A DNA stretch of 64,000 nucleotides, from the NCBI GenBank assembly GCA_963834385.1, contig CAWIBO010000002.1, forward strand, positions 992,001 to 1,056,000, written 5' to 3'. The position numbers and the translations under genes were made by a program. Below the pieces are notes generated by a model. It was not told where the DNA came from and ran no database searches. It saw only the letters and a program-made list of their open reading frames with translations. Below, one piece after another: positions 8,824 to 42,311 of the stretch; position 1 is the stretch's first letter; each line of letters begins with the position of its first letter. Source of the stretch: an uncultured Verrucomicrobiae bacterium. GTDB taxonomy: Bacteria; Verrucomicrobiota; Verrucomicrobiia; Chthoniobacterales; UBA10450.

Positions 8824-8826
8824 CCC

Positions 8827-9379
8827 CTAACGTCGGAATTCGGCGACACGAAGCAACTTCGCACTGACTTCCACGCCCGGCCGCCCGCAAACTCTCCTGG
8901 CTCAGGCTCAGCCGGACACGGTTGCGGTCGGTCGTCAGCGCAATCATGCCGCCCCGCGCGATGAAGTCGTCCGCTTCACCGACGGTGACCACGTTACGCC
9001 CGGCCGTGGCCGCGATGATCTGGTCGAGCCGGCTGGTTTCGCGGCGGGGCACATAAAGCAGATGACACGGCCCGATGTCGCGCGCCGCCCGGTAATGTTC
9101 CACCCGCACGGGGCGGCCGCGCAGGACTTCACCCCTCACCGTTTCCAGCAATAGCGAGCCGAAGGGATCGTCGCCGATGATCCCGATGACCAGCGCGTCG
9201 CCCGACGAGGAGAAGGCCGTCCGCGGCCATTCGATGAAACGGAGGAAATTGTAGACAAAGACGGCTTTGACCGCGTATTCGGCCTCGCCGGGGGGCGGAG
9301 CCGGGCTGGCCGGAAGCGGGCTCGCCCAGGCCGCCAGCCCGAGGAAAGCGAGAAGCAGCGACCTTCTCAGAATTGCCAT
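8827..9379 (-). CDS. yfiR: YfiR (DUF4154) family periplasmic protein, one indel near 8880
   Basis: EYAVKAVFVYNFLRFIEWP, IGIIGDDPFG, VVTVGE..F...GGMI; corrected C-terminus VSAKLLRVA ends at TAG 8827. Confidence 0.85.
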
Positions 9380-11337: not shown

Positions 11338-11475
11338 GCGTGGTTTTGTCACTCGGGGGAGGGGGCGACGGGAAAAGACTGCGGCATTGCTGCCATTTTC
11401 ATTTCCCGCTGGCAAGCCCGCCCTGCTATCCTGCCGCCGATTTTTCAGAATTCTCGGCCGCCGGACACCACGCCC

Positions 11476-14473: not shown

Positions 14474-14549
14474 AGACGAAGCGATCATTTTCGGAGCCTG
14501 GTTTTTGCTTGCGGCTTCCCTGAAGTTTGGATGTTGGTGCTTGGAGTTT
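13940..14549. mobile_element. Inverted-repeat-bounded element carrying the four-helix-bundle gene
   Basis: AAACTCCAAGC (13940-13950) and its exact reverse complement GCTTGGAGTTT (14539-14549); further complementarity and heptamer periodicity in both arms. Confidence 0.6.
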
Positions 14550-14554
14550 AAAAA

Positions 14555-16089
14555 ATGTCCGCAACCTTACCGACCGAGAAGATCACGCGGAACGGCGGCA
14601 AATCGCTCACACCCTGCCCTCTCTTCATCGGAGGCGAGTGGGAGGAGATCGAGGGCGGCGCCGGATTTCCCGTGCACAATCCCTCAACGGGCGAAGTCAT
14701 CGCCGAGGTGCCCGCCTGCGGACAGGAGCAGGTTGACGCGGCGGTGGAAGCGGCCGCCCGCGGCCTTTCCCGGCTGGTGGGAAACACCGCCGGTCGAGCG
14801 CGCCCGGGTGTTTTTCCGGTTCAAGATGCTGCTCGAGGAGCATTTCGAGGAACTGGTGCGCTTAAACACCGCGCGAGCATGGCAAGACCCTGGTGGAATC
14901 GCGCGGCGACGTCCGCCGCGGCCTGGAAATGGTCGAGTTTGCCTGCGGCATTCCCTCGCTTTTGACCGGCGAATCAATCGAGAACATCGCCCGCGGCATC
15001 GATTGCGACACCATCCGGCAACCGCTGGGCGTCTGTGTCGGGATCACGCCGTTCAATTTCCCGGCCATGGTCCCGCTCTGGATGTACCCGGTCGCGATCA
15101 TGTGCGGGAACACCTTTGTCCTGAAGCCAAGCGAGAAGGTGCCGCTCACGGCCATCCGCATCATCCAGCTCCTCCAGAAAGCCGGCCTCCCCGCGGGCGT
15201 GATCAACATCGTCCACGGAGGCCGCGAATGCGTCGACGCGCTCCTCCGCCATCCGAAGGTGCGCGCCATCTCCTTTGTCGGTTCGACTCCCATCGCGCGC
15301 TACATCTTCGAGACCGGCACGCAGCACGGAAAACGCGTGCAGGCGAACGGCGGCGCCAAGAATTTCGTCTTTGTCATGCCCGACGCCGATGTCGAAAACT
15401 CGAGCCGCGGCGTCATCGAGGGCGCCTTCGGTTGCGCGGGCGAACGCTGCATGGCCAGTTCCACCGCCGTCATGATCGGCGAGGCCGCCTCCGCCGCGCT
15501 GCCGGAGATCGTGCGCCTGGCCGGGGCCATCAAGGTCGGCCCGACTGACCGCGAAGCGCAGCCGAACATGGGCCCGGTCATCACCGCGCAGCATCGCGAC
15601 CGCGTGGCGGAGCTGATCGCCGCCGGCGAAAAAGAGGGAGCGCGGGTTGTGGCCGACGGCCGCGGCGTCAAGGTGAAGGACGCGAACGGTTTCTTTCTCG
15701 GCGCCACTGTCCTCGATGGCGTTCGCGAAGGCATGACCGTCGCACGCGAGGAGATCTTTGGCCCGGTCCTCAACGTCATGCGCATGGAAGACCTCGACTC
15801 GGCCATCGAGGCGGTGAACCGCTCTCCCTACGGCAATGGCGCCTCGATCTTCACGCGTTCCGGTAAAGCCGCGCGCGAGTTCAAACACCGGATCAAGGCC
15901 GGCATGGTCGGGATCAACATCGGCGTGCCCGCTTCCATGGCCTGGTTCCCCTTCAACGGCTGGGACGAATCGTTTTTTGGCGATCTCCACATGCAGGGCA
16001 AGGAAGGGGTGCAGTTCTTTACCCAGCAGAAGGTCACCACCAGCCGCTGGTTCAGCTACGGCGAGGGCAGCATCTGGGCGGAGAAATAG
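14555..16089 (+). CDS. mmsA: CoA-acylating (methyl)malonate-semialdehyde dehydrogenase; indels near 14760 and 14870
   Basis: GITPFNFPAM, LKPSEK, SFVGST, GAKN, GCAGERCMA, EEIFGPV, GINIGVP. Confidence 0.92.
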
Positions 16090-18973: not shown

Positions 18974-20315
18974 ATGCAAAATCCCGAACTCCCGCCGTTT
19001 GATCATTCACCCCAGGCTTATCGCGGCCCTTCCGCCGAGGAAGTGCTCAAGCTTCGCCGCGAATTCCTCAATCCCGGCATCTTTCTCTATTACAAAAAGC
19101 CGATCATGCTCGTGGAAGGCAAAATGCAGTATGTCTGGGACGAATCCGGCAAACGCTATCTCGACGCCCTCGGCGGCATTGTCACGGTCAGCGTCGGTCA
19201 TTGTCATCCCGAGCTGGTCGAGGCGGCCCGCGCGCCAGAACGAGCTGCTCCAGCATTCCACCACGATCTATCTGCATCCCAACGTGGCCGAGTACGCGCG
19301 CAAGCTGGCCGGGAAAATGCCGGGCGACCTCAAGGTCTGTTACTTCGTCAACTCCGGCTCGGAGGCAAACGATCTCGCGCTGCTCATGGCCAGGGCTTTC
19401 ACCGGCAACTACGACATGATCGCGCTGCGCAACGCCTATCACGGCGGAAACGCCTCCGGCATGGGCCTGACCGCGCATCACACCTGGAAGTTCAATGTTC
19501 CGCACAGCTTCGGGGTGCACCACGCCATCACCCCCGATCCGTTCCGCGGCGCCTGGGGACGCGATAACCCGGAGGCCGGTAAAAATTACGCGGCGGATGT
19601 GAAGAGCCTGATCGATTACGCCACGCCGGGGCAGGTCGCGGGCTTCATCGCCGAATCCATCCAGGGGGTCGGCGGCTGCGTCGTTTTCCCGGATGGCTAC
19701 CTGAAAAATGTCTACGAACATGTCCGCGCGGCGGGCGGTGTCTGCATTGCCGACGAAGTGCAGTCCGGCTTTGGCCGGACCGGTTCGCATTACTGGGGGT
19801 TCGAGACCCAGGACGTCATCCCGGACATTGTCTCCATGGCCAAGGGCATCGGCAACGGCGCGCCGCTGGGCGCGGTGGTGACGACGCCGAAGATCGCCGC
19901 CGCCCTGGCGCAACGGGTTCATTTCAACACCTTCGGAGGCAACCCGATCGTCTCCACCATCGGCAGCGCCGTGCTCGATGTGATCGACCGCGAGAAATTG
20001 CAGGAGAACAGCGCCCGCATCGGCGGACGGATCCTCGAGGGCCTGCATCGGCTGCAAAAAAAGCACAACATCATCGGCGATGTCCGCGGCAAGGGACTCA
20101 TGCTCGGGATCGAGCTGGTGAAGGACCGCGCCACCAAGGAGCCGGCCAAAGCCGAGTGCGCGCAGGTGCTCGAGACGGCCAAGGAAATGGGGCTCCTGCT
20201 CGGCAAAGGCGGGTTGCACGGCCAGACCATCCGATTTTCCCCGCCGATGTGCGTGCACGAGCAGGACGCCGATTTCCTGCTCGAGGTTCTCGACCGCGCC
20301 TTCCAGTCGCTCTAA
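18974..20315 (+). CDS. Class III aminotransferase (AGXT2/PYD4-like, beta-alanine:pyruvate), one indel near 19230
   Basis: EGKMQY.WD...[48 protein letters not shown]. Confidence 0.9.
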
Positions 20316-20771: not shown

Positions 20772-22554
20772 CTATTCCTGCGGAATCCCGGAAAGATCGA
20801 TCGGCGGATAGAAGAGGGCGTCCGGCGGGAGAGCCCGGCGCACCCGTCGTGGCTGGGCAAATATTTCCCCGGAAGGCGCCTCGAAAATCCATTCGCCCCG
20901 AGGAGTTACCCCGACGAATCGGGCATTGTAATTCCGGCGCACTGTCTGCCGGCGGGAGCGCGACAGAATCCGCGCCTCCTCGATCTCAGCCGGGAGCGCC
21001 CGGCGAACTTCACGGGCGCGGGTGCGTGCCGGGCGACTGTTCCGCGCTGTCATTTTCGGCTTCGACGGGACTGTGTTCTCTTTCGCGCGAAACCCGGCTT
21101 GGCTGGGATGAAGCGACGGCCTTCGGGGGTTCGTCCGCCCCGGAGGTGGTGTCGTCCGAAGGAATCTCCGTGGTCGACTCGGCCGTCAGGTCTCCTTCTT
21201 CTGGTCCCTCCGCGGGCGGCTCAGCTTCCACCGGCGCGGGCGTGGCCGCGGCGACAACCTGTTCCGTCGGCGAAACGGCTGGCGCAGGTGTCGTGGTCTC
21301 CTCAACCACCGCCGCCGGGGAAGATTCGGTGTCCGCCAACACCGGCGAGGCGGTCGCCGCGGGTGACACCTCCTGCATCGGTTCGGGACTCGCCGTGGTG
21401 ACAATTGTTCCACCGGCTGCGCCCACGCCCGGTGTCGGAACGCCGACGGGTTCGCCGATCAATTCCGCTTCCTGGCGCGCCTGGCGATTTTCCAGTGCGC
21501 GCTGGAAAGCGGGCCAGGCCAGGCTCGCCAGCACAATTAGAGCAAGCGCGGCCACGGCGTATCCGGCCGGTTGCAGGAGATTGCGGAAGGCCCGGGCTTC
21601 GCGGGACGACGCCACCGGGTCGGCGACCACCGGTTCCGGCTCGGGCGGCGGGACCGTCGCCGCGCTGACCGCGGCTCCGCCGAGGAAACCGGGGAGCCAC
21701 GAGCGGCCGCGCAGCCGCGTGAGGTGTCGCTCCATCTCTTTCGCCAGGAGCACGGGATCACGCGGTCGCGCATCCGGGTTTTTCGCCAGCATCTTCTCCA
21801 GAAGCTCGCGCACCCCTTTCGGCATGGCCTCCAGTTGCGCCACCGGCGGTTCCGCCATCATCTGCTGCGCCGTCACCGCCGCGGGCGACCCGAGAAAAGG
21901 CGGATGACCTGTCAAAAGAAACCAGAGGGTGCAGCCAAGCGAGTAAACCGCCGACTGAAAATCAGTCTCCCCGCGGTCAAGCTGTTCGGGCGCGGCATAC
22001 TGGAACGCGGCCAGGCGGGCGGCTTCCTCCGGACCGGCGTCGGCCTCGGCCGGCCGCAGCCGCCCGGGACCGAACCCGAGCAGCTTGATGAAGGGCCATT
22101 CACCTTCGTCGTTCACTCCCGGCACCAGCATGATGTTCGCTGGTTGCACCGCGGCGTGGGAAAGACCGTGGAAAGCTCCGGCGCCAAGCGCGAGCACCAC
22201 CTGCCTGGCAATGCGCAGGGCCGCTTCCGGCGGAAGCGGTCCGTGCACGGAAACCCAGCGATCGAGCGGTTCGCCTTCCAGCCGCTCCATGGCGGTATAA
22301 TGAAAATCCCGACCCGTCCCGGTCTCGAGGATCGTGGCGATATTTGGATGATTCGGCCGTCCCGCATCGTCAGCGGCCGGCGCGGCCGCCGCAGTGATGT
22401 CCGTCATGGCGAGCGGGACCAGGCGGAGCAGAACCGGGTCATGGGTGGTGCGATGCTCGGCTTCCACGGTCAGTCCGATCCCGTCGCGGGTGAGCACAGT
22501 GGGCTCTCCGTCGTATCCGGTTATTACTCGATAATTTCCAAAATTTCGTTCCAT
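20772..22554 (-). CDS. Membrane-anchored Ser/Thr kinase-like protein (pseudokinase), one indel near 21020
   Basis: HPNIA, MERLEG, YAAPEQ, YSLGCTLWFLLTG.PPF, P..RP kinase scaffold; TM; Pro/Thr/Glu-rich tail. Confidence 0.8.
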
Positions 22555-22695: not shown

Positions 22696-22766
22696 CTACC
22701 CCGCATGGATTCGAACCATGAATAACGCCTCCAAAGGGCGCTGTGTTACCGTTACACCACGGGGTA
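22696..22766 (-). tRNA. tRNA-Gln (anticodon TTG), CCA not encoded
   Basis: TACCCCG acceptor stem, TGGTGTAACGGT D-arm, GCGCC-CT-TTG-GA-GGCGT anticodon arm, GGTTCGAATCC T-arm. Confidence 0.95.
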
Positions 22767-22863: not shown

Positions 22864-24006
22864 TCAGGCCGCGGCCGGGGTCGCCTCCGGGGCAGGCACG
22901 GGCAGACGGATATCGACCGTGGTCCCGCTCCCCAGCACGCTGCATACGGAAATCTTGCCCTCGTGGGCGTCGACGATTGACTTGGCGATGGCCATGCCGA
23001 GACCGGTGCCGTGGGCCTTGCCGTGGGTGACAAAGGGCTCGAAAAGTTTCGGCAGAATCTCGGGCGGGATGCCGCAGCCGGTATCGGTAATGCGCAGCGC
23101 CACCTCGTCGTAAACGCGGTCGGCCGTGATGGTGAGAATGCCGCCCTGGGGCATGGCTTCCCGGGCGTTCTTGATCAGGTTGGCCAGCATCCGGGTGAAC
23201 CGGGCCAGATCGATGTCGAAAACACCGTCGTAACTGATGCGCTTGGCAAACTGGATGTTCTGGCCCGGCAGCAGGCGCAGCGATTGCTGGTTCAGGTCGT
23301 CGAGCAGGCGCCAGATGGTGACGCGCTGCTTCGAGAGCGTCATGGAACCGCGGGCGTAATCGAGCAGCTCCTGCGTCATGGCGAGCATGCCATCGACCGC
23401 GGTGTCCATCATGCCGGTCAGCTCGCGCAAACGCGGATCCGGGGTTTCCCCCGCGATCAGGTCCGAGCAGCAGCGGACAATGCAGATCGGGTTCTTCAGG
23501 TCGTGAATGATGGAGCTGGCCATGGCCCCGACGAGGCTGAGGCGTTCCGTGCGCATGACCTCGGTGATGAAGTGCGAGTTCACCGCGCGGAGCCGCTCGG
23601 AGACGCTGCGCAGGAAGTTCATGTGCAACCGGCTCGGGGCCAGCTCGAGGATGTGCTGGAAAGTGCTTTCGGTCACCGCCCCCAGGAGGGTTGGTTCGGC
23701 CGCCGTGGCCATGGCGGAGCGCGGCTGGCCGTCCAGCAGGGCCATCTCGCCGAAAAAGTTGTTGGACTGGATGAACCCGAGGGTCTCCTGGTTCCCGCCG
23801 CGCCCGATCTTGGAAATCTTGACCGAGCCTTCGCCCACCAGGTAAAGCGAGTCGCCGGGGTCCCCCTCCTTGAAGATCACTTCGCCCGGGGCCAGGCGCA
23901 TAACACGCACCTCAGGCGCGATTTCGTCGAGGAGTCCGCGCTCAATCCCCTCAAAAAGGCGATTGCCGTAAAATTGGTCGACGGCCTGGAGGGCGGAGGA
24001 AATCAT
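22864..24006 (-). CDS. Cytoplasmic cNMP-binding histidine kinase
   Basis: IFKEGDPGDSLY...FFGEMALLDGQPRSA cNMP domain; IHDLKNP H-box; NAREAM, DTGCGI, GTGLGM. Confidence 0.92.
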   Translation of the reverse strand: MISSALQAVDQFYGNRLFEGIERGLLDEIAPEVRVMRLAPGEVIFKEGDPGDSLYLVGEGSVKISKIGRGGNQETLGFIQSNNFFGEMALLDGQPRSAMATAAEPTLLGAVTESTFQHILELAPSRLHMNFLRSVSERLRAVNSHFITEVMRTERLSLVGAMASSIIHDLKNPICIVRCCSDLIAGETPDPRLRELTGMMDTAVDGMLAMTQELLDYARGSMTLSKQRVTIWRLLDDLNQQSLRLLPGQNIQFAKRISYDGVFDIDLARFTRMLANLIKNAREAMPQGGILTITADRVYDEVALRITDTGCGIPPEILPKLFEPFVTHGKAHGTGLGMAIAKSIVDAHEGKISVCSVLGSGTTVDIRLPVPAPEATPAAA

Positions 24007-24722
24007 CAGGCTCCCTGGGAAGCAGTCATAATGCCGTCAGCGGCCTTTTTTGGCCCCGCGCCCGCGATCTCGAGCAGCGAGGTCAACTGGGAGACGAGCT
24101 CATCCGGCGGGAGCGGCTTCCGCAAGAAGGCCGAGAGGCCGCGGGCGAACATTCCCTGGAGCCGGATCTCGTCGATAAATCCGGTCGTGAGGATGACGGG
24201 AAGGGCAGGGGCCAGCGTCCGGATCCGATCAAAGGTCTCTTCCCCGTCGAGGAACGGCATGGTCAGGTCGAGGAGCACGGCGTCGTATTGACCCGGTTGT
24301 TGCACGAGAAGATCGAGGCACTCGAAGCCGTTGGCCGCCTCGCGCACGGCAAACCCGGCCCCGTCCAGCACGCGGGCGGTGAGCTCCCGCGTCATGGGCT
24401 CGTCATCGACCACCAGGATGGTGCCCCGGGGCTGGCGGGCGCGCTCCGCTTCCTGCCTTTGCAGAAGGGCGCCGAGATCAGGATGCAAGAGGACCTTCTT
24501 TTCGCAGCCTCCGACCTGGCGGACCAGCTCGCTCGTGACCTCGGCGGCGCGCTCAACACTGGCGCGGAGCATGGCGAAGTATTTTTCGGAGCCGGGTGAG
24601 CCGTCCCAGATGTTTTCGATGACCTCGCTCGTGCCGGCGATAACCTGCAGGAGGTTGTTCAATTCGCTGGCGGCGACCGGCACCTGCTGGCGCGCGATCT
24701 CGTTCTCTTTGGATGATTCCAT
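24006..24722 (-). CDS. Response regulator with N-terminal degenerate HisKA-like helices
   Basis: ASELNNLLQVI...ERAAEVTSEL, then ILVVDDE, LLDLTMP, TTG, KP receiver. Confidence 0.85.
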   Translation of the reverse strand: MESSKENEIARQQVPVAASELNNLLQVIAGTSEVIENIWDGSPGSEKYFAMLRASVERAAEVTSELVRQVGGCEKKVLLHPDLGALLQRQEAERARQPRGTILVVDDEPMTRELTARVLDGAGFAVREAANGFECLDLLVQQPGQYDAVLLDLTMPFLDGEETFDRIRTLAPALPVILTTGFIDEIRLQGMFARGLSAFLRKPLPPDELVSQLTSLLEIAGAGPKKAADGIMTASQGA

Positions 24723-24725
24723 GGA

Positions 24726-27700
24726 TTAACCGCCGGGAGGCAGCGCGCTGAGGGATTTCGTTGTGGCTCCCATGCCGGTGAACGTGCCGGTGGTGGAACC
24801 GTTCCCGCCGAAGCCGGTGTAGTTCGGGTTATTGGTGTAAACGTTCGCGGGCAGGTTCCCGTTGATCGTCACCTGCACGTTGTTAAAGATGTTGACGGTA
24901 TTGGCCGCGATCGTTTTTGCGGCCGTGCCGTTGAGGGTGGTGTTGCCGGTAAAGTTGATCGTGCCGCTGCTTCCGCCGGCGTAGAGGCGGATGAGCGAAT
25001 TGCCGCTGAGCTGGGAATTGCCCACGTTGAGGACGCCATTGCGGCCGACCGCGCTCAGCTTCACGACATCGGCGCTGAGGGTGGAGTTGTTGACGGTGAC
25101 GGTTCCGGTGCCGCCGTTGTTCTGAACGTCGATGGTTCCGCGGTCCGCCTGTACCCTGGCGCCGTTCAGGTTCACCGCGCCGCCGCCGAGGTCATCTTGA
25201 TGGAGCCGCCGGAACCGCGGGCCGTGGCCGCGAGGAGGCTGTTCAGCTCGGCCGAGCTGGTCACGTTGATGGCCACGCCCGTCTTTTTCCGGCTTTCCAG
25301 CGTGATGGTACCGCCCTTGTCGCTGATCGCGCCGATTTCCGTCGTTCGACGACACTTCGATCTTCGATCCGACCGTGATGGTGTCGTCGGACTTGAGCTC
25401 GACTTTGCCGCCCTGGCCACCGGTCATGCCGGCGGTGCTGTTCAGGCCGGTCGTGGCGAGGATAGGGACGTTGACCGCGATGGCCCCCACGGTGTCCGCC
25501 TTAAGTTCGCCGCCATTTCCCCCGGCCTCGGCACGGGAGGGGGAGGCATCTCCGCCGGTGAGACTGGCGCTCCGGACGGCGGTGCCGGCAGAATCAAAGT
25601 TCAGGGTGCTGGTAACGAAGGTCACGCTGGAGGCATGCTGCGGCGCGCTGCTGGCCGTGCCGGAGGCGCCGTCCAGCTTGATGCCGCCGGTCCACTTGAT
25701 GTTGGGCGCGGAGATCGTCTTGCTCTCGGCCACCGGGCCGCTGAGGAGCCCGCCCGAACCGATGGAGAGCACGGTCCCGGCCGTGACCTGCTTTGCGCTC
25801 AAGGAACCGGCCGAGATGCTTTTGGTGGCGGTGATCTTGTCGCCGGCGATGAGGCCGCCGACACTGATGAGCCCGGGAGTGGTCGCCTCCTTGAGGGCGT
25901 ACAGATTGCCAGTAAGGACCAGGTCGCCCTTGAGATTGAACTTGAGAGTGTTGACCGAGAGTGAGCCTCCTTCGTAGGAGCCGTTGGTGAGGGTGATCTT
26001 GTCGAATCCGACCAGATCGAAGGCGGCGGCGTTGATGCCCCCGGCTTTCACCGTGATGTTGGAGGCGGAGGGCGCGATGGAGAAGTCGGTCAGGAGCGTG
26101 AGACCGTTTGAGTTAATATTCAGGGTCTTGAGCCGCGCGGTGTCGACGCCGCCACCCCGCCGTTGGCGGAGGCCAGGCTGATGACGCCGTTGCTCGAGTT
26201 CAGGGTCAGATAATCGGCGGAGAGATAGGCCGTGCTGGCATTAAAAAGAAGCGCGTCGGTTCCGGTAAGCGTGAGGGTGGGGGCAACAAGGCGGCCGAAG
26301 ATCTGGGTGTCGGCCGCCGCGAGAACGAGGGCGCGCGAGGCCTGCAGATTGGCGCTGGTGGCGACATGAAGATCCCCTGTCGCGCTCACGCTCAGGTCGC
26401 GTCCATTCATCCCACCGGCAAGGCTGGCTGAACCGGTGGTGTTGGCCTGGATGTCCTCCACCGCCGAGAGATTGCTGGCCGCACCGGTCACGAGGTCGCC
26501 GGAGAGGCTGAGGCCGATGTTCCTGCCGCTGGTGACAACCGAATTGATTGTCGCTCCCGCGGCGTTGGCCTGGAAATCCGCGCTGTTCACCGTCCCGTTG
26601 ATGAGCAGTTCCTTTGTCCCGGTCAGCTTGAAGGTTTTGCCACTGCTTCCGCCATCGAGGGTGATCCGCTGGCCCGAGATGGTGACATTGCCGCCGGCGC
26701 CGAGGCTGCCGCTGCCGTTGAGGATAAAATCCTGAGTCATGGTGAAAACCATGTCGGCCGCGGACTCGAGGGGTCCCCCGACGATGGCTTTCTTGCCGGA
26801 CACGCCGATGCTCTGCGTCTGCGCGCGATCGTTCATGGTCACGTTACCCTTGGCGGCGCTCAGGGTGAGTTTGGCGGAATTGGTAGTCCCGCGGAGAAGG
26901 ATGTCGCCGTTGAGAGAGGTGACGGCGATGTCCTTGGTGGTCGAGATGGAGCCAGTAGCCCCAAGGGTAAAATTTGTCCCGGTGGTGAAGGTGGCCAGAT
27001 CAGCCTGCAGCGCCTGGTTCACGGTCGCGTTTTTGACGTTGGCGACGAACGCACCCGGCGTTTGGATGGCGGCGTTGGTGGTGAGGTCCTTGCCTGCCGT
27101 GATGGAAAAGTTTTTCCCGCTGGCGGCGCCGTTCAGGGTCACGTTGTTCACCGCAGTGAGGCTGACGGAGTCCGTCGCGCGCAAGTTGCCAGAGGCCGAA
27201 AGGAGCAGGTCGTCCTTGTTATTGACGGTGAAATTGCGGGCGGAAATTGGACCGGCCAGGGTAACGTTGGTGCCTGCGATGTTGACGTCAGCACTATTGA
27301 CGGCGCCGTTGACCACGATGTTGGCGAGCCCGTTGAGACCGAGAGAGCCCGCGGTCGTGATTGTGCCGTCCAGGATGATGGAATCAGAAGCGGTCACGCT
27401 GGCATTACCGCCGAGATTAATGACGCTGCCGTTGCCCGCGCGGAAGGAAGTGCCGGCGTTAAAGGTGGCGTCCTTGCCGCTCAGGCTTCCGTTGAAAGCG
27501 ACACTGGGACCGGTCGCGACCAGGCTGGAGAGAGCCTCGGTTGTCCCGTTAAACGTCAAAGCGCCAGGGATTCCCCTGTTAGTCCCGGAGGTGATGGTCA
27601 CCACGTTGCCCCGGGTGGCGCCGTTCAGATTGATCAGGCCCGCCGAATTGATCGTGAGGTTTTTGTCCGGCCCGGTGGCGGAAAGGCTCGCCCCGCTGCC

Positions 27701-30221
27701 CAGGGTAAAGGACTGGCCAGCGTTGAATGTCAGTTTCTCGCCCGCGATGGCGTTGTTTGCATTCAGGACAGTGCCCGAAGCGACCAGGTTCTTGGTGGTC
27801 ACCGGTCCGTTAAAATTGATGGCGCCGTTTAACAAGAATCGGATTGGTTCCCGCAGAGAGGGTCATGGTGGACCCATTGTTGATCGCCCCCAGGTTCATC
27901 CCGCCGCCGGTGGTGATGGAGAGGTCGTCCGTATTCAGCGCCGCGGCGCCGGTCATGTTGAAATCGTTGGTCATGGTGAACCCCACCGTTTTTCCGGTGA
28001 CGGTATTGCTGATATTGGCCGTGCGACCCGAGGCGGCCAGGACATAGGAGGCGGTGAGTTTGCCGCTGACGTTGATGTCGGTCCCGGCAGTGAGGATGAA
28101 CTTTTTGCTCGTGCTGGTGGCGTCCTCGAGTTCCGAGGTGGCCCCCGCCAGGTTCATGGCCCCGCCCGTGACAATGGTCAGGTCGTCCGAGGCGTTGATC
28201 GTGCCGGCGCTGCTGAGATTCAGGTCCCCGCCGATCTGCAGGTTAAGGTCCTTGCCCGAGAGAGAACCGTTGATGGTGGCTGAATTGCCGTAGCCGAAGA
28301 GATCCTCGGCGTTGATGCTTCCGTTGACCACGAGCTGGCCGCCGGCGTAGACCTGCGCAAAACGGCTCGAGATCGCGCCGTTGATCACGGTATCGCCCAG
28401 GGCGGTCAGCGAGGCGGAGCTCGCCAGAATGCTGGCGGTCGCATCCACCGTGACGTTTTTCTCCGCGGCGAGGAGCAGGCTGGCGTCCTTCAGGTTCATG
28501 GAAGAGCCAAAGTTGACGTTGCCGTTCCGGGCATAGAGCTCAATGAGCTTGAAGGCACTTCCGTCCGCCTTGGTGAAGGTGAAGCGGTCGCTCAGGCTGA
28601 TCGACCCGTTCGCGGTCCCGAGGAAGAGGCCCTCAAGCCCGTTAAGATTCACCGTCCCGCCCAGGTTCGAGGAGGTGATGTCCGTCTGGCTGATGAGGGA
28701 GATGCGGTTGGCGCCGGCGCGGGTGAGGAAGCTGGGGTTGCCCTCCAGCTCCAGGGCGGAGAACGAGTAAACGCCGCTGCTGGAGAAGTCGCGGTTGTAC
28801 TGGTTGTCGAAATCCATCCGGTTATCAAAACTGGAGGTGCTTCCGAAAAGGAACTTGGAGGCGGAACCGGTCGCCGCGGTGCTGCGGAAGAACATTCCGG
28901 AGTCGGTCACCCCATCCGTGGTGATGGAGGGGGAGGCTTTCGAGGTGTCGATCAGCGTTCCCGACTTGATGATGTAAGGGCCGCTTGAGGCGATCCGGGG
29001 AGGCGTCGAAGAGGGCACCGCATTCACGTTGGGGGTTGGAGCGGGGTTGGGCGTTGCGCTCGCGCCGGCGAACGGTGTGGGAGTCGGTCCCGGCACGGTG
29101 GGAGTCGGCGTGGCGGTTGGCGTGGCGGTTGGCGTCGCGGTTGGCGTCGCGGTTGGTGTCGCGGTTGGTGTCGCGGTTGGTGTCGCGGTTGGTGTCGCGG
29201 TTGGTGTCGCGGTTGGTGTCGCGGTTGGTGTCGCGGTTGGTGTCGCGGTCGGTGTCGCGGTCGGTGTCGCGGTCGGTGTCGCGGTCGGTGTCGCAGTCGG
29301 TGTCGCGGTCGGTGTCGCGGTCGGTGTCGCAGTCGGCGTCGCGGTCGGTGTCGCGGTCGGTGTCGCGGTCGGCGTTGCTGTCGGCGTCGCACCACCACCG
29401 CCCCCGCCCCCGGCCGGTGAGTCGTCCGGGAACAACTGTTCAACGTCGTGGCGCTTCTTGATCGTTTCCATCAGGTCGTCCTCTGCCATCACGACCTGTG
29501 TCCCGCGTCCAAGGATGACAAGATTGGTATCGACGAGAGAATCGGAAGTCTTGTCGTCGGACTGCCGGGCGATCTCCTCGTTGATCAACGGCATGCTGGG
29601 CAGGGGCGGCACCGCTCCGTCGGGCCCGGGCATGTTCACCAGCGTCGAAGTGGTGACCACCGTCTTCAAATCAACCGTCACGGGATCCGGGATGCGTTTG
29701 GCGTTGGGCGGCATGATGACCATCTTGCCCGGGGTAAGAAGGAGGGAGTCGCCGAAACGACCGTTCATGGAAAGGCGGAGACTGCCTTCCAGCACCAGCA
29801 CCTTGATTGATCGGGCCGGACGATACTCGAGCAGGATCGTCGTCCCCGTGATCGAAGCGGTCACGGCCGCGGTCCGGATTTTCGCGCCGCCCAGGCCTTT
29901 CGGGACCTGCAGCAGCATGGTGCCCTCTTTCAGGGCCATCTCGCGAGTGCCGGGCTTGAAACTGAAGAACGTCTCAGGCCCGATGCGGGTCAGGGTGTTG
30001 TCCTGAAAGCGGATCTCGGAGCGCGATTTCACGCCGGTTTTCAGGCCGATATCATCCTTGATGACGTCATCCACCCGGGCGGGCTGGATGCCGGCCGGTT
30101 GCACAAGGTTCACTTGGTTGATCACCTTGGTGACCCGCGCCTCGGTAAGGGGGGCGGCGTGGGCGGTGAGAGCGCCGACGGTGAGAAAAAGAGCGGGGAG
30201 GAAATAGCGGACACAGTTCAT
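24726..30221 (-). CDS. Giant (~1800 aa) secreted FecR-domain / TPTA-linker / beta-helical adhesin-like protein; indels near 27830, 26160, 25330 and 25190
   Basis: Signal peptide, FecR-like [21 protein letters not shown]...[17 protein letters not shown] repeat, then G/N/S/T-rich haemagglutinin-like repeats continuing through ORFs 27810-30278, 26120-27835 and 24726-26051. Confidence 0.75.
29104..29391. repeat. 12-bp tandem repeat, about 24 units, encoding (TPTA)n
   Basis: GCGGT(T/C)GG(T/C)GTC units in blocks of identical variants. Confidence 0.95.
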
Positions 30222-30292
30222 AAGGGGAATCTCCGCCCGGTGGGGGAGCAGAAGGCGTGCCGCTGCCATAATTTCCATAACGTTAAATGCCT

Positions 30293-31234
30293 TCAGAATC
30301 GGAAGTTAAACCCCATCCCCAGCCCCGTGGTCATGACGTCGTAGTCGAAGGCGAGCCGGTTCGAATCATTCGTCCCGTAGGAGAAAAAGAGGCCCGCCTG
30401 AAGGTTGCGGGAGATCAGATAGCGCAGGGAAACCGTGGCGAGATGGTTCTGATCCTGGCGGCCGCCGGAGTTGTAGAAGAGCCAGGAGTAACGGTAGAGA
30501 AGGTCGGCCTCGAGCGAGCGGGTCAGGCGGAGGTGGTAGTTAAGAGAGGCGGAAAGCTGATCGCGCTGGGCCGCGGAAGGATGGGCGAACCCGGCCATCC
30601 CGACGAGGCCCAGGGAAAAGGCATGGGATCGGCCGAGGGAGAAGACCTTCTGGGCGGCAAGGGAAAGCTCGTGGTCGCGCAGCATCTCGTTGCTGTGTGA
30701 GTCGAGAAGTTCAACGAAATCGTAACGGGCCAGGAAGGAGACGCCGCGAAGAGCCGCGGGGGTCCAGTTCAGACCGGCACCCGCGCTCAGGTTCTCGAAA
30801 TCGAGCTCCGTGGTTTCGTGATAGCGGAAGAAGGCGCCGCTGATGTTGGCGGTGACATTCCACTGGGGTCCAAGGGTCCGAAACCAGTTGGCGCTCAGGT
30901 TGGTTACCCAGAGGAAATCATCCGTCTCATCGGCGGCGGCCAGGGCGACGTTGCTGGTATGGATGAGGGTGGACTCACCCACGATGGCAAACGTCGGCAG
31001 GCGTGGCTCCTCCTTGAGAATCTGCTGGGCGCCAAAGCTTCCGTCCGCCTCGCCCGCCTCGGTCTCAACCGGGATGACCATGCCATCGGCGTTCACGGCC
31101 GGAGACGGCGAGGGCCCGGTTTGCCCTTGCACTAAACGCGCACGGTCGAGGGCGGAAACCGCTTCCTGGGCGCGGGCCGGGAAGGCCAGCGCGACAAGGA
31201 GAAGCAGAATGAGACTATGCCGGGGGGCGGCCAC
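30293..31234 (-). CDS. Outer-membrane beta-barrel protein
   Basis: Signal peptide ([15 protein letters not shown]), alternating amphipathic strands, C-terminal GFNFRF; GTG start inferred. Confidence 0.75.
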
Positions 31235-31351
31235 CTGCTGGTCATCAGCAGCGGGTATGCCAGAGCAGGCGTTTATCCTTCTCCGCAAGGTTTTTACGTC
31301 TCTCGTCCATCCGCGTCCGGACCCGGCACGTTTCCGGCTTGGCTTCACCCG

Positions 31352-33289
31352 ATGCCCTTCAAGCGGACAATCATGATCTGCGCCATCGCCGTCGGCGTTC
31401 TGGCGGTGACGATCGGCGTGGAGGTGCGCGAACCGAAGGCCTACACCCAGCTCCGCCATCTCTACCGGGATGCCGTGGTCCGGGCCGGTCGGACCACGCC
31501 GCCCAACCCTGACCTCGTTTTTCTGGCGATTGATTCCGATTCGGTGGGCCTGGAGCAGGAGACCGACCTGCAGGAATTCTACGAGATCGACGATCCGACC
31601 TGCCTGAGGGCGCTCTCCCTCATGACCCAGCGTTACCCGTGGCCGCGCGAAGTCTACGCTTTGATCCTCGACCGCCTCATGGCGGCCGGAGCCCGGGTGG
31701 TTGTTTTCGATCTCACCTTTCCTTCCGCCACGGCGGACGACCCTCTTTTCCGTGCGGCGCTGGAGCGCTACCGCGACCGCGTGGTCGTGGGCAGCAACTT
31801 TGTCGACCCGAGCTGGAGCGGCGGATTTCAGCGCATCGGCGCAAGCCACACCCGGCCGACCGACACGTTGATTCCGCAGGATAAGCAGGACGATCGCGTG
31901 GCTTTCACCAACTTCTGGCCCGACGCCGACGATGTGGTCCGAAACGCGCAGTATCGGGTGACCTTCGAACAGGTGCAGGGGCGATCTCCCACGTCGGATT
32001 CCGAAGTCATGCTCTCCCTCGCGGCGCAAGCCCTGACCAAGGCGGGTTTCGGAGAGAAGGTGCCGGCGGGCCTCGAGGCGCGAGGGCTCCGGTTTACCGC
32101 GCCGCCGCGCCAGGGTTTCCTTCCGCGCTCAATCTTCGAGATTTTCGTCCCCGAGTACTGGACGCACAATTTCAAGTCGGGCGAGTCGTTGCGCGACAAG
32201 ATCATCCTGATCGGAGCGGAAGGAAACTGGCAGCACGACGAGCATCTCACTCCCTTCGGCATCATGGCCGGGCCCGAGATTCACCTGAACGCGCTCAACG
32301 CGGCGTTCCACGGGGAGTTTCTCAGCGAACTGCCCTTGCTGGCGGTGATTCAATTGACGACCGGCGCCGCTTTGGTTGCCGTCGTGCTGGCCCTGCTGGT
32401 CCGTTCCCCATGGCTCCGGCCCTTCCTGCTCATCCTGCTCAACGCCGGCGCGGGCGGCTTTGCCCTCTACGCCTTTGACCATCTCGACATCTACATTCCG
32501 CTGATTGGTCCCCTGGCCTGCCTGAACGCCGCCACCGTCTTCGGGCTGGTGGGAGACTTCGCCTTCGAGCGGGTCGAGAAAGGAAAAGTGCTGCGCACAC
32601 TCGAGCGCTACGTTTCCTCGGATGTCGCCGAGCGCATGCTCAACCCTGACAGCTCTTACGAGCGCGCCCTTGGCGGCGTTTCCAAGCCGGTCACGATTCT
32701 TTTCTCCGACGTGCGCGGTTTCTCCCGAATCGCCGCGGCCCGTGAGCCCCAGGTGCTCGTCGGACAGCTCAACGAGTATTTCACCGCCATGGTGGACTGC
32801 GTCTTTCGTCATGGCGGAACGATCGACAAGTTCATCGGCGATGCCGTCATGGCCGTTTGGGGTAGCGTGCACACCGCGGGGCTCTCCGAGGACGCCGTCA
32901 GCGCCTTGCACGCGGCCCTCGACATGGAACGGGAGCTGGCGCGCCTGAACCAGAACTGGCGCAAACGGGGCTGGCCCGAGCTGACCGTGGGCATCGCGAT
33001 CAACCACGGTGACGCGATTGTCGGCAATGTCGGGTCACCGAAGCGGATGGAGTTCACCGTCATCGGCGACGCCGTCAACGTGACCTGGAAACTGCAGGAG
33101 ATGACGAAGACAACAGGTTGTTCACCCCTCGTCAGCGCCTCGGTGCGGCAGCTCGCGGCAGAATTTTATGATTTCGACCTGGTCGATCGCTGCACTATCC
33201 CCGGCCTCTCCGGTGAAATAGAGATCTTTGCGCCGGGAGAACGCCTCGCCTCTTCCTCCGCCCAGGAGCTGGCCGAGGCCTCCGCCTGA
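31352..33289 (+). CDS. CHASE2-domain class III adenylate/guanylate cyclase
   Basis: VFLAIDS, YPWPR, VVFDL, D.DDVVR, MAGPEIH CHASE2; three TMs; LFSDVRGFS, IDKFIGDAVM, FTVIGDAVN. Confidence 0.92.
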   Translation: MPFKRTIMICAIAVGVLAVTIGVEVREPKAYTQLRHLYRDAVVRAGRTTPPNPDLVFLAIDSDSVGLEQETDLQEFYEIDDPTCLRALSLMTQRYPWPREVYALILDRLMAAGARVVVFDLTFPSATADDPLFRAALERYRDRVVVGSNFVDPSWSGGFQRIGASHTRPTDTLIPQDKQDDRVAFTNFWPDADDVVRNAQYRVTFEQVQGRSPTSDSEVMLSLAAQALTKAGFGEKVPAGLEARGLRFTAPPRQGFLPRSIFEIFVPEYWTHNFKSGESLRDKIILIGAEGNWQHDEHLTPFGIMAGPEIHLNALNAAFHGEFLSELPLLAVIQLTTGAALVAVVLALLVRSPWLRPFLLILLNAGAGGFALYAFDHLDIYIPLIGPLACLNAATVFGLVGDFAFERVEKGKVLRTLERYVSSDVAERMLNPDSSYERALGGVSKPVTILFSDVRGFSRIAAAREPQVLVGQLNEYFTAMVDCVFRHGGTIDKFIGDAVMAVWGSVHTAGLSEDAVSALHAALDMERELARLNQNWRKRGWPELTVGIAINHGDAIVGNVGSPKRMEFTVIGDAVNVTWKLQEMTKTTGCSPLVSASVRQLAAEFYDFDLVDRCTIPGLSGEIEIFAPGERLASSSAQELAEASA

Positions 33290-33570
33290 GACCCGCTCAG
33301 GCCGCGCGCGCGGGCGGGGGCGCCTTGCGCTTGTCGCGCACATTCCGCATCTCCACTGTCTGGCGCGGGTGACAATTTTCGCACCAGTGCCGTTTGGAGG
33401 CTTCCAGCCGCGCGCGATGACCGCACTGGTCGCAAATGAAAAACTCCATCTTCACCCGGGGACGCTGCATGGCTTTTAGGCGCTACCATGGGAAATCGGG
33501 TTGCGCGAGGCAATTTTCCGTGGCGGCACCCGAAAAATCATGGCACAACTTCGGCTTCCTTCCCCCCGGA

Positions 33571-34086
33571 ATGAGATATCTCCCCCTTTTCCTCGGCCTG
33601 CTTCTGCTCGCGACCGCCCCGCTCCAGGGTGCCGGCCCCTTTCCCTCCACCGGGCCGGTGGTGCCGGGCCGCACCGCCAAACTAAAAGGCGGCATCGCCC
33701 ACGCGCCGGCCGAAGCGCCCTTGGCTGTGAAACGAGCCATCTGGGCGGCGAACCAGCTCCGCTCCAAACCATACCGCTACGGCGGAGGTCATCGCTCCTT
33801 TCGCGACAACGCCTATGATTGTTCCGGCACGGTTTCCTACGCGCTCGGCGCGGCCGGCCTGCTGAAGAGCCCGATCCCTTCGAGCGGTTTCCGTCTTTAC
33901 GGCAAATCGGGTCGCGGGAAATGGATCACGGTCTATGCGCGACGCGGACATACCTTTGCCGTGATCGCTGGTCTTCGCCTCGACACCACGCCGTTTAACG
34001 CCTGGCGCGGGCGGTGGGCTCCCCGCTGGTATCCCAATTACCGCCATCCCTCAGGATTCACGGCCCGACATCCGGCCGGCCTCTAA
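33571..34086 (+). CDS. NlpC/P60-like peptidoglycan endopeptidase
   Basis: Signal peptide; PYRYGGGH, YDCSG, HTFAVIAG. Confidence 0.8.
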   Translation: MRYLPLFLGLLLLATAPLQGAGPFPSTGPVVPGRTAKLKGGIAHAPAEAPLAVKRAIWAANQLRSKPYRYGGGHRSFRDNAYDCSGTVSYALGAAGLLKSPIPSSGFRLYGKSGRGKWITVYARRGHTFAVIAGLRLDTTPFNAWRGRWAPRWYPNYRHPSGFTARHPAGL

Positions 34087-34117
34087 GCTTCGGATTTTCG
34101 CTCAGCTCGTCAAAGAT

Positions 34118-34165
34118 GGACATGCGGAAGCATGTCCCTCCGGAGGGATGCGCTTCCGCGCGTCC
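34118..34165. repeat. Back-to-back REP-like palindromic doublet
   Basis: GGACATGC-GGAA-GCATGTCC-CTCC followed by GGAG-GGATGCGC-TTCC-GCGCGTCC, between convergent genes. Confidence 0.7.
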
Positions 34166-34215
34166 AGAATGTTCCGGAGCTTTTGCCTCCGCGAGGAGCG
34201 GCGGATGGCGCGGCG

Positions 34216-35646
34216 CTAAAGTTTCAGACCGGTCACCCGTCTCCACCTGCCAGCGCTTGATCTCATCGGTCAACCGCGCCACCACTTCCCGGTTCTCCGG
34301 GAGATCAATCACGTTTTCCGTTTCCCATGGGTCCCGGTGCACTTGGTAAAGCTCGTTCAGATCGCGGTCACGCAGACTGAGCTTCCAGCCGTCGGCCGTT
34401 ACCACCATCCGGGTGGATTCCGCCAGCGCTTTTTTCGCCTCTTCCTTCGGCACCTGCGAGTCCCTCGCGAACTTCATCCGGTTGGGTGACCACTCGACAA
34501 AGGCAGGGCGAGACGGTTCTTCCTCACCGTTGAGCAGGGGAAGAAGGCTGCGGCCGACACATTGTCCGCCGGCGCGCCGCCGAGCAGGTCAAGCAGAGTG
34601 GGAAGGAAATCGATGTGACTGACCGGGTGGGAGACGCGCCGGCCCGGCTCACCGGGCAACCGCAGGAGCCAGGGCACCCGCACGGAAGGGTCGAACATGA
34701 CTTCTTTGCCGAAAAGATGATGGCCGCCCAGCATGTCGCCGTGGTCGCTCGTGTGCACCACGATCGTCCGCCCGGCGTTGCCGGTTTCCTCCAGGCAACG
34801 CAGGATCCCGCCGATGCTCTGGTCGACCAGCGTGATCAGGCCGTAATAACGGCGCCGAATCTCGCGGTAATCTTCCCGCGTCAGCCCGAAGTAAAGAACA
34901 TTGGCCCCTTCCTCGTGGCCCTCGATCGCCTCGGTCCGCTGCCATTCGCGCATGAGGCGGTATCGCAGGGGAATGTCCTCCCGCGGAGGCGCCTCGGCCG
35001 TGGGATCGAGTTCAATCCCGGCCGCGTCATGCTCGTCGTTCAACGGCCCGTTGTAGGGCGAATGCGGCTCAACAAACGCGACAAAGAGGATAAAGGGGCG
35101 GTCCCGGTGCTGCCGGATAAACTCGCACGCGTGTTCTTCCAGGAACCGCGGCTTGGAAAGTTCCGCCGGCAGGGTGCTGACCTTCCGCCGCGAAAAAGTC
35201 TTGTTGGAACGATCGGGCTGGATGCCCTGCCCGAGCAGATATTGCTGGTAGTCGCTCACCTTTTCCGTCGAGACCCACTGGGTGAACCCCCGTTGCGCGG
35301 AAGAATTGTCGCCCAGATGCCATTTTCCGAAGTAGGCGGCGGTGTAGTCAGGGTCGTCCAGAAGCTCCGGCAAACCCCGGAACTCCGCCCCCAGCACCTC
35401 GTTGTTTCGCGTGCAGCCGGTCTGGTGAGGCCAGCGCCCCGACATCAGTGAAGCCCGCGACGGGGTGCAAACGGGCTGGGTGACGTAGGCGCGCTCAAAG
35501 ACCACGGACTCGGCCGCGAGGCGGTTCAGGTTTGGCGCGTGGACTTTATCGTTGCCGTAGGCCGCCAGGGTGTCAAAACGCTGCTGGTCGGGCAGAAAGA
35601 CGACCAGGTTCGGTTTCCGGGGCAATTGTGCTGCGTTCCAGGCCAT
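34216..35646 (-). CDS. Formylglycine-dependent sulfatase; indel near 34555 and probably near the 3' end
   Basis: [43 protein letters not shown]...DPWETEN; stop position inferred. Confidence 0.88.
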
Positions 35647-41238: not shown

Positions 41239-42267
41239 CTATTTCTCGGCGTAGCTTTTAACGATGGCCGCGGCGGTTTCCCGCACCCGCCGCGCCAGTT
41301 CCGCCGGCTCCAGCACCTTGACATGCGCACCCCAGCTCAGGATCCACCGCTCAATTTCCTCCAGGCCGCCCAGTTGCATCTCCAGGATCAGGCCGCCGTT
41401 CTTCTCCAGCCGGATGCGCTGCGATTCATGCCAGGTGCGTTCCGCCACAAGGCGCCCGGCAAAGGCGTCGAAATGAAGGCGGATCCGGTTCTTCCGTCCC
41501 CCGGCAAAAACGCCGAAGCTTCCGCTCAGCACCCGTGAGATGGAAAAGTCCGACGGCCGCGTAAACCGGCGGGGCGTCAGCCGCAGGTGGCGGATACGGG
41601 GCAGGGCGAAGGTGCGCAACTGCTGACGGTCCGCGTCCTCCGCGAAGAGATACCATTGGTGCTCGAGGGAGGCGAGGTGATAGGGACGCGCCACGCGCGG
41701 TTCAAAGCGGCTGCTTTTCAGGCCGCGATATTCGAACTCCACCTCGACCGAACGCATGACGGCGCGACTCGCCAGTTCAAACAATTCCAGGTCGGCCACA
41801 CTCGCCCCGACGCTGCGGAAGGAGATGGCCTCGTCCAGGTCGGCCCAGGAAAACGAAACCCGGTCGGCCAGGCTGCCGGTTAGCTTCGAGAAAGCCGTGT
41901 GGAGCGGCTTCTCGAACGGTGTGCCCCGGTATTGCGCCAGCGCCTTTTCCGCCACGAAAAGCGCGGCCACCTCGCCCTCGGACACTTCCACGCTGGGAAA
42001 GGCGGAGACCGGCTCGGTGTAATAGAAGCCGAAACGCAGCGGATCATACTCGATCGGCAGGCCGAGCTGGTCGCGCATGAAATCGATGTCGCGCTGGATC
42101 GTCTTGGGCGACACCTCCAGCTCGGCCGCGACCTTGCGGCAGTTGGGAAAGCGTCGCGCCTTCAACTGCGAGTGGAGCTGCATCATGCGGTAGAGCGGGG
42201 GACGCGAAGCGGTGCCCCGGCCGGAGGGAGCCGGGAGCGGCCCCGAAACTTTTTTGGAAATCTTCAT
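41239..42267 (-). CDS. wHTH-WYL-WCX transcriptional regulator (YafY/PafB/DriD-like)
   Basis: AELEVSPKTIQRDI HTH, RPYHL...WYL, RTFALPRI, WILSWG..VKVLEP. Confidence 0.92.
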   Translation of the reverse strand: MKISKKVSGPLPAPSGRGTASRPPLYRMMQLHSQLKARRFPNCRKVAAELEVSPKTIQRDIDFMRDQLGLPIEYDPLRFGFYYTEPVSAFPSVEVSEGEVAALFVAEKALAQYRGTPFEKPLHTAFSKLTGSLADRVSFSWADLDEAISFRSVGASVADLELFELASRAVMRSVEVEFEYRGLKSSRFEPRVARPYHLASLEHQWYLFAEDADRQQLRTFALPRIRHLRLTPRRFTRPSDFSISRVLSGSFGVFAGGRKNRIRLHFDAFAGRLVAERTWHESQRIRLEKNGGLILEMQLGGLEEIERWILSWGAHVKVLEPAELARRVRETAAAIVKSYAEK

Positions 42268-42270
42268 GTG

Positions 42271-42289
42271 TAGGACAGTCAATGTCTCA
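42271..42289. promoter_or_regulatory. Candidate WYL-regulator operator GACA-N5-TGTC
   Basis: TAGGACAGTCAATGTCTCA in the 44-bp divergent gap. Confidence 0.55.
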
Positions 42290-42311
42290 CCCCCGGTGGC
42301 AAATTGCACGC

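Follow-up and report, generated by a model that had tools for sequence, protein, structure and literature searches.

A candidate trans-envelope path from a beta-barrel and a FecR-headed beta-helix protein through a CHASE2 cyclase to a cyclic nucleotide-binding histidine kinase in an uncultured Verrucomicrobiae bacterium

A cluster of five adjoining genes was analysed in a 64,000-nucleotide stretch of DNA from an uncultured Verrucomicrobiae bacterium (G000:C2:992001-1056000; this whole stretch is hereafter the window, and G and L numbers denote our genomes and loci). The cluster encodes a small outer-membrane beta-barrel, a giant exported protein with a FecR-type head and a beta-helix rod, a CHASE2 class III nucleotide cyclase, a histidine kinase with a cyclic nucleotide monophosphate (cNMP)-binding domain, and a receiver protein (Table 1). 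The first three (hereafter the trio) and the kinase likely form a four-part core, and the complete five-part circuit proposed in a preliminary description of the window is not established. From the observed domains, predicted folds and gene linkage, we infer, with about an even chance of being right, a trans-envelope path that would run from the barrel and the FecR protein through CHASE2 and weak, local cyclic AMP (cAMP) to the kinase. The trio is of a known kind, and the linked cNMP-binding kinase as the putative reader, together with the altered active site of the cyclase, is the new part. What activates CHASE2 receptors is a question of long standing, and most knowledge of bacterial cAMP comes from work on Crp; the cluster gives a compact case of both, with a small and defined set of CHASE2 partners. 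The soluble 380-aa kinase would be a cAMP-gated histidine kinase, of which no description was found in the literature searched.

All five genes lie where they were first reported, and the reported spacing was reproduced: the receiver gene starts after a 3-nt gap past the stop codon of the giant and overlaps the kinase gene by 1 nt (TGATG), and the cyclase is divergently transcribed, 117 bp from the barrel (previously given as about 120 bp). The reported absence of an extracytoplasmic function (ECF) sigma factor and of Crp from the locus was also borne out: the nearest ECF-type sigma match was 34 kb from the cyclase, and no HTH_Crp_2 match above the cut-off was found in the genome (assembly of 2.9 Mb, 89.6% complete). 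Crp-type helix-turn-helix (HTH) domains were found in 13 of the 36 family relatives, including two genomes with all five genes (G004 and G020). The spacer between the barrel and the cyclase contained neither a sigma-70-like site nor a Crp-box-like palindrome, such a palindrome was found in 0 of 15 barrel/CHASE2 intervals, and a promoter and terminator scan gave matches at chance level only. Judged by the cyclase, the nearest named relatives are metagenome-assembled genomes of the Chthoniobacterales, which are common soil bacteria.

The core is supported by gene linkage across genomes. Using the kinase as the query, 61 genomes of the order (the window's included) were sampled, and matches were obtained at 32 places in 31 of them; the fetched loci spanned 2.4–20 kb, several stopping at contig borders, and their content was scored with profiles made from the fetched loci. 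A class III cyclase was present at 12 of these loci, a CHASE2 gene at 7, the whole trio at 6, and the receiver, within 2.5 kb, at 16, while all five genes stood together at five (the window, G004, G005, G011, and G020). The 12 cyclases lay within 13 kb of the kinase, compared with a chance of about 4% per 20 kb based on the genome's own cyclase density, and belonged to at least three types (the Trp-lineage CHASE2 type introduced below, a family-f5 CHASE2 type, and an FHA-cyclase). The five non-CHASE2 cyclases near the kinase had an N-terminal FHA-like domain, which Pfam FHA confirmed on one. Since 12 of 32 kinases in the order had a cyclase nearby, against 1 of 26 distant ones, the association is strong in the order and not general. 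A CHASE2 gene was present in 36/36 family relatives searched.

A second sample, taken with the cyclase, comprised 16 loci of the lineage to which the window's cyclase belongs, named here the Trp lineage after a tryptophan in its active site (L230 was included, and L122 was assigned via its CHASE2 domain). The kinase adjoined nine of them, six ended before the kinase position (L086, L121, L123, L127, L129, and L230), and L182 was the single clear kinase-less locus. Outside this lineage, the kinase accompanied the trio in G040 (family f5) and in a distant genome (L135), and a CHASE2 cyclase in G054. The kinase directly followed the giant in G011, G020, G040, L124, L125, and L130, the receiver intervening in the window, and it remained while the cyclase was divergent or convergent among loci. 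In the kinase tree, G020, L124, L125, and L130 joined family f5 (99/97), whereas in the CHASE2 tree the same four joined the window's (95); both trees were midpoint-rooted and the second was a quick search. Because the trees disagree, the trio must have been paired with two old kinase paralogues, through at least one re-pairing. In G005, a truncated kinase copy immediately follows a duplicated giant. The sister lineage in the CHASE2 tree (five receptors, joined at 99) has a histidine kinase output instead of the cyclase, the same kind of FecR head, and a barrel detected in 4/5. With their shared front end, the two lineages, one using a CHASE2-kinase and the other a CHASE2-cyclase plus a cNMP-kinase, would illustrate how a second-messenger step is inserted into, or removed from, a phosphorelay. 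A metallo-beta-lactamase (MBL)-fold gene followed the kinase or stood beside the cyclase in 8/16 lineage loci and was absent from the window. Three genomes are flagged as unpublished: G007 (L021 and L086), G002 (L051, L100, and L230), and G014 (L036 and L118). They account for 3 of the 32 kinase loci (0 of the 12 cyclase-linked), 2/16 lineage loci (both among the contig-cut six), 1/8 MBL loci, 1/12 aligned Trp domains, and 1/7 degenerate kinases, and the conclusions stand without them.

Table 1. Features of the locus, in window coordinates.
Feature	Position	Strand	Basis or remark
Soluble cNMP-binding histidine kinase (cNMP-HisKA-HATPase), 380 aa	22864..24006	-	domain search, alignment
His-less HisKA-like hairpin + receiver domain (DD, D, T, K intact), no output domain	24006..24722	-	domain search, alignment
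Exported FecR-head/Pro-Thr linker/beta-helix protein, ~1,830 aa if read through	24726..30221	-	FecR 37 bits; three-frame translation
FecR-type head, ~245 aa past signal peptide	29421..30155	-	domain search
Small outer-membrane beta-barrel, about 290-313 aa	30293..31234 (GTG start 31234, stop 30293)	-	Pfam BBP2_2 28.7 bits (weak)
Divergent intergenic spacer, 117 bp (barrel start to cyclase start)	31235..31351	.	sequence
Membrane CHASE2 class III nucleotide cyclase, 645 aa	31352..33289 (ATG 31352)	+	domain search, alignment
tRNA-Gln(TTG)	22696..22766	-	after the kinase; marks the right-hand side of the locus throughout the family; outside the circuit

The phosphate-binding cassette GE...RS of the kinase is intact (FFGEMALLDGQPRSA), as first noted, and so are the H, N, G1, and G2 boxes (IIHDLKNP, NLIKNAREA, DTGCGI, and GTGLGM, respectively). 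Among the genome's seven cNMP-domain proteins, it alone has a phosphorelay or DNA-directed output; the others are a peptidase ABC transporter, an MscS channel, DUF1003, Fe-S and DUF4388 proteins, and a stand-alone domain. A stand-alone cNMP-fold protein without the GE...R cassette is encoded at window positions 59847-60437 (minus strand), beside a VIT1-family gene. Within the kinase clade of the window, in a subclade of seven trio-less kinases (L028, L029, and L032-L036), the cassette Glu is gone and the His or a G box is mostly gone, a loss that counts as one event and is suggestive only. These degenerate kinases are still full length behind the receiver, which points to a possible pseudokinase function.

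In the cyclase, both metal-binding Asp (SDVRGF and DKFIGD), the adenine-selecting Lys in DKFIGD and Thr in EFTVIG, and the catalytic Asn are kept, and all of these were invariant in 12/12 Trp-lineage domains. The preliminary description was correct about the adenine-selecting Lys; the active site is not canonical, since Lys replaces Arg and no equivalent of Lys1065 is present. According to the available parts of PMC9223806, Arg1029 and Lys1065 of AC2 bind the triphosphate in the mammalian enzymes. Across the 12 distinct Trp-lineage domains, the Arg1029 column was Lys in 8, Arg in 3, and Gln in 1, compared with Arg in 126/127 other domains; two further loci of the lineage, G011 and G002, read W-R. 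As far as the alignment can tell, the Trp plus altered basic residues is a lineage-wide trait. An aromatic residue likewise precedes the Arg in the closest solved cyclases, 2w01 and 6fht.

Several other cyclases were encountered. A second trio in the genome (L017:7419-9587 on G000 contig C5; also L092 and L120) has a cyclase with EHFLGD, that is, His at the base-selecting Lys, and Gly for the Thr; its substrate is possibly different, and the similar L093 retains the Lys. Asp occupies the base-selecting position (QDFIGD/NDFIGD) in the CHASE2 cyclases of L155, L157, L158, L160, and others up to L196, mostly from Rokubacteria/Methylomirabilota, which are candidates for a non-adenine substrate. 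FHA-domain class III cyclases are flanked in L042, L044, L046, and L049 by a Ser/Thr kinase gene on one side and the cNMP kinase on the other; they read N-F-L-F-R and have a hydrophobic residue at the Lys1065 column. Directly after the window's cyclase, an exported NlpC/P60-like protein is encoded (33436-34086, plus strand), which is unlinked in relatives (1 match, G021, among 40 loci).

The FecR domain and the beta-helix rod of the giant were confirmed, whereas its reading as a single open reading frame (ORF) was not: the frame shifts four times, at about 27840, 26155, 25320, and 25190. Across the first two breaks it is collinear with a 1,653-aa single ORF of G005 (68, 53, and 52% identity), and the short piece that is out of frame between the third and fourth breaks is covered by a 651-aa ORF of G004; because these single ORFs align across the breaks, the giant represents one ancestral frame of ~1,830 aa. 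The frameshifts are probably sequencing errors. When tested against relatives' proteins, the assembly proved rich in indels, with 27 frame changes in 197 kb and 19/146 genes broken. Small parts of the giant were found in four soil metagenome runs of one study, whose contigs were free of indels, and no RNA run holding the giant was among the matches listed. An aldehyde dehydrogenase (14505-16089), an aminotransferase (18974-20315), and a sulfatase (34058-35646) in the window are each spread over two frames, which fits the high indel rate.

The FecR head has no transmembrane segment and no anti-sigma N-terminal domain, and is followed by a Pro/Thr linker of 23 PTAT units. The middle 560 aa of the rod were modelled as an all-beta beta-helix (pLDDT 95), with EtpA (Z 25.6), Vag8 (22.7), and HMW1 (22.3 at rmsd 2.2) as the best structural matches in VIA-align. 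A Foldseek search with the rod returned nothing significant, and Pfam/NCBIfam gave no haemagglutination-activity match on the giant. For the C-terminal domain, the ESM Atlas returned pertactin-like, PATR, and rOmpB passengers, which all scored <0.9 and are leads only. In most FecR proteins of these loci the head is followed by a Pro/Thr-rich or low-complexity segment, and the rod behind the same head ranges from none to ~1,900 aa; relatives encode intact giants of 651-1,042 aa. As many of the proteins stop after the linker, the head, the barrel, and CHASE2 are the constant part and the rod a variable cargo. No solved structure was related by sequence to the FecR head, the CHASE2 domain, the receiver N-terminus, or the MBL protein, and one complex prediction for the FecR head and CHASE2 scored 0.12 against a mark of 0.32 and was given no weight either way. 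Elsewhere in the genome (L018:8442-15928, G000 contig C2), a short FecR gene, a barrel, and an intact 1,869-aa FecR/beta-helix paralogue lie together, with the CHASE2 gene absent from the 20 kb fetched.

The barrel was modelled by AlphaFold2 with 12 strands (pLDDT 86). It has a signal peptide, an unstructured N-terminal arm of ~45 residues, and a C-terminal Phe, the start codon and signal peptide being assigned by eye from the sequence. The distal part of the arm carries a conserved D-x-S-F-G-x-Q-x-I-L-K motif in the alignment. The closest folds were all tied (a COG4313 channel at Z 16.6, autotransporter barrels at Z 14.5-16.5, and FapF at Z 15.0), and neither a POTRA nor a TPR domain is present. 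A ShlB profile search across the genome gave zero matches, and the control sequences were likewise silent.

The receiver protein has the pseudo-HisKA N-terminus first reported: the domain is HisKA-like and its His is missing, with S-E at that position in 33/33 rows shown (D for E in one). Pfam HisKA matched in 19/25 homologues, always below the cut-off, and BLAST of the N-terminus against the window's hybrid kinase gave no match. The receiver was matched in 27/61 genomes and switches sides of the cyclase among relatives. Of the 25 relatives' loci examined, 19 have the receiver facing sufC and eight have it without an adjoining kinase; in six of the genomes with such kinase-less loci (83-99% complete), the kinase was not matched anywhere. 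No receiver match came from G040 and G054 of family f5, in which the cyclase and kinase are present. On these grounds the receiver was rejected as an obligate part; it is a conserved neighbour of sufC that frequently stands apart from kinase or trio, and its membership is doubtful. These data portray it as a resident of the sufC-tRNA interval and not as a constant fifth member. In the kinase clade of the window, receiver and kinase are co-transcribed, so the receiver may be a kinase target there. In the genome as a whole, 39 receiver-domain matches were obtained. Linkage of the kinase/receiver pair to the trio in other genomes, raised in the preliminary description, was found for the kinase and much more loosely for the receiver.

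The cluster was compared with known systems. In Sinorhizobium meliloti, signalling from a barrel to CHASE2 cyclases is established genetically, through NsrA, CyaK/CyaD1/CyaD2, and Clr (available parts of PMC7529298, PMC13001267, and PMC5498481). As described there, an outer-membrane beta-barrel protein acts upstream of an inner-membrane CHASE2 class III cyclase, and in our cluster the genes for two such proteins are adjacent; NsrA is one large protein of ~1,200 aa with the barrel at residues 600-1200, whereas a 12-strand barrel and a separate FecR-headed beta-helix protein are found here, and the cAMP reader is the Crp-type Clr there and would be the co-encoded kinase here. The locus would resemble NsrA-CyaK in its working and falls outside that pathway type, the reader being different. 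NsrA also holds FecR and TPR domains. A Campylobacterota cluster described computationally combines a CHASE2 cyclase, a FecR-domain outer-membrane protein, and a phosphodiesterase, which the MBL gene of 8/16 lineage loci parallels; it has a TPR protein, and a beta-helix rod, a cNMP kinase, and a receiver are unmentioned in the available parts of that report (PMC9239204). The Burkholderia BiofilmReg/P. aeruginosa PA4035 type shares an exported FecR-domain protein beside a CHASE2 receptor and a phosphorelay output; in the sections available, it differs in a LysM-FecR protein, CHASE2 fused to a kinase, a DNA-binding regulator, no cyclic nucleotide step, and no barrel (PMC5192318). No LysM match was found at the window locus, where CHASE2 is fused to the cyclase; the fused CHASE2-kinase form is the sister lineage of the Trp lineage. 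With two-partner secretion (EtpA, HMW1, FHA), the cluster shares a right-handed beta-helix passenger (model of the middle 560 aa); it has a FecR head in place of the TPS domain and a 12-strand barrel without POTRA in place of the 16-strand, POTRA-bearing TpsB, and membership was rejected for lack of a TPS domain and a POTRA barrel at the locus. The 12-strand barrel is also autotransporter-like, its fold match being tied with non-autotransporter channels; membership was rejected because passenger and barrel are on separate genes with their own signal peptides, the barrel gene first, as also in relatives. FecIRA is a cell-surface signalling system with a TonB-dependent transducer, a membrane anti-sigma factor, and an ECF sigma factor. 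The locus shares with it a FecR-family periplasmic domain beside an outer-membrane barrel gene, and classical membership was rejected since the transducer, a membrane-anchored anti-sigma domain, and an ECF sigma factor are all absent from the locus. The view that no characterised system has all the parts agreed with the literature searched, although the trio alone has published precedents; titles and abstracts on CHASE2 with FecR, CHASE2 with Verrucomicrobia, and cAMP-regulated histidine kinases did not describe the combination, most subscription papers lying outside this search.

In the four-part path, the giant would be exported by Sec, and its FecR head would remain periplasmic, retained by the small barrel, with the Pro/Thr linker and the rod facing outward. 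The CHASE2 domain would read an altered state of the head or barrel, and the cyclase, its active site weakened rather than dead, would yield a small local amount of cAMP. Binding of this cAMP by the neighbouring kinase would alter its autophosphorylation; because cAMP is proposed to act on the kinase, the output would be a phosphorelay, not a Crp regulon. The MBL-fold hydrolase of sister loci would be a likely cAMP eraser, and the co-transcribed receiver is possibly one kinase target here and not a required part. A more specific version, which we regard as speculative and rather unlikely, is a 'split autotransporter' mechanosensor: the rod would be threaded out through the separately encoded 12-strand barrel and tethered by the periplasmic FecR head via the unfolded linker, and a pull or binding on the rod would shift the head on CHASE2. 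A cyclase throttled by its Trp/Lys active site would then feed the dedicated cAMP-gated kinase, and a co-encoded MBL phosphodiesterase would confine the signal. Local cAMP would serve as an internal wire in a two-component pathway, and in evolution this wire and a direct CHASE2-kinase fusion could replace one another.

Several observations weigh against the four-part path. A complete trio was lacking at 26/32 kinase loci and any cyclase at 20/32, several of these being cut by contig ends, and 25/26 distant kinases of the same architecture (phylum-wide, 33-38% identity) had no cyclase nearby; a kinase family that is always cyclase-linked was rejected on these counts. The related loci are not independent, and 8/16 lineage loci came from a search that used the cyclase as the query, outside the relatives' set. 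Beyond the cluster, the genome has a further five matches to class III cyclases and a further six proteins with a cNMP domain. Six trio-less kinases retain an intact cassette, the degenerate clade being a single event. In the cyclase, N-V-T-W-K replaces N-x-A-S-R, so that the transition-state Arg (Arg1029 column) is Lys and the Ser is Trp, and the Lys1065 column, placed by MAFFT alignment of a variable stretch, was never Lys/Arg in 12/12 Trp-lineage domains, compared with Lys/Arg in 116/127 others. The MBL family occurs in 38/61 genomes, mostly unlinked, and matches the cyclic-nucleotide phosphodiesterase model only far below the cut-off. Four frameshifts in the giant exceed the ~0.75 expected from the 27 breaks per 197 kb (breaks that are probably undercounted), and the frameshifts were bridged by 0 of 32 metagenome pieces among the matches listed (32 of 107). 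In the available part of PMC5498481, the S. meliloti FecR-domain protein SMc02177 is dispensable for signal perception.

These points bear on four alternatives. The genes might be neighbours by position only, the sufC-to-tRNA-Gln interval being a hotspot in which the trio stands beside an independent receiver-kinase operon and the kinase reads bulk cAMP of any cyclase. Such a reading is unlikely but draws on the orientation of the receiver towards sufC, the receiver-kinase-tRNA arrangement without any trio gene in 11 genomes, the scarcity of cyclases near distant kinases, and the six cyclase matches in the genome. It is countered by the kinase and CHASE2 cyclase found together off this interval (G040, G054, and L135), by the pairing of the same trio with two kinase paralogues, and by the truncated kinase after the duplicated giant in G005, which indicates a giant-kinase unit that was duplicated. 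Alternatively, the Trp-lineage cyclase might be a pseudo- or half-enzyme that binds ATP and metal and makes little cAMP alone, pairing with the family's canonical CHASE2 cyclase, to which it would donate the two Asp, or contacting the kinase. The altered Arg1029 and Lys1065 columns, kept in most other domains, and a canonical CHASE2 cyclase encoded in the genome (L019) agree with this, but Asp, Lys, Thr, and Asn are invariant and would be needless in a subunit that only donates metal ligands, the Arg/Lys exchange preserves charge, and the Arg of 2w01 and 6fht is likewise preceded by an aromatic residue; we consider this option improbable.

The direction of the path might also be the reverse, with the beta-helix adhesin shown via the barrel as the output, CHASE2 sensing something else or fibre assembly, and the cAMP-kinase step controlling adhesin-related genes. 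The TpsA/autotransporter-like rod, its variable length, the second barrel/FecR/1,869-aa giant locus without a CHASE2 gene (L018), and SMc02177, which is a cAMP target gene and not a sensor in the available part of PMC5498481, would suit this logic. However, short FecR proteins that carry nothing but a proline tail behind the head are still found with the barrel and CHASE2, so the conserved core is head, barrel, and CHASE2 and not adhesion, and NsrA lies genetically upstream of CyaK (PMC7529298, available part); we regard a reversal as quite improbable. Finally, the module might be decaying in this strain, the giant being a pseudogene in a locus heading to the common trio-less state. The density of frameshifts in the giant (four within 5.5 kb), which is higher than the average of the genome, the frequent loss of the trio in the family, and the MBL gene missing at the window locus point that way. 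Against it, the only in-frame stops are those following the shifts, the other four genes (barrel, cyclase, receiver, and kinase) are intact, breaks also affect conserved housekeeping genes in the assembly, and scattered breaks occur in orthologues of other assemblies (G005, G011, and L124); decay therefore seems highly improbable.

Other genes of the window were noted. After tRNA-Gln, a membrane Ser/Thr kinase-like protein is encoded (21010-22554, minus strand) at a position conserved in the family. The catalytic-loop motif of Ser/Thr kinases is HRDxKPxN, and since HAAVQPAN replaces it here, this protein is probably a pseudokinase. A second trans-envelope module (6541-11490, minus strand) consists of a TonB-dependent receptor and, after it, a CHASE8-HAMP-PAS hybrid kinase, and an HTH-WYL-WCX regulator is encoded at 41239-42309 (minus strand).

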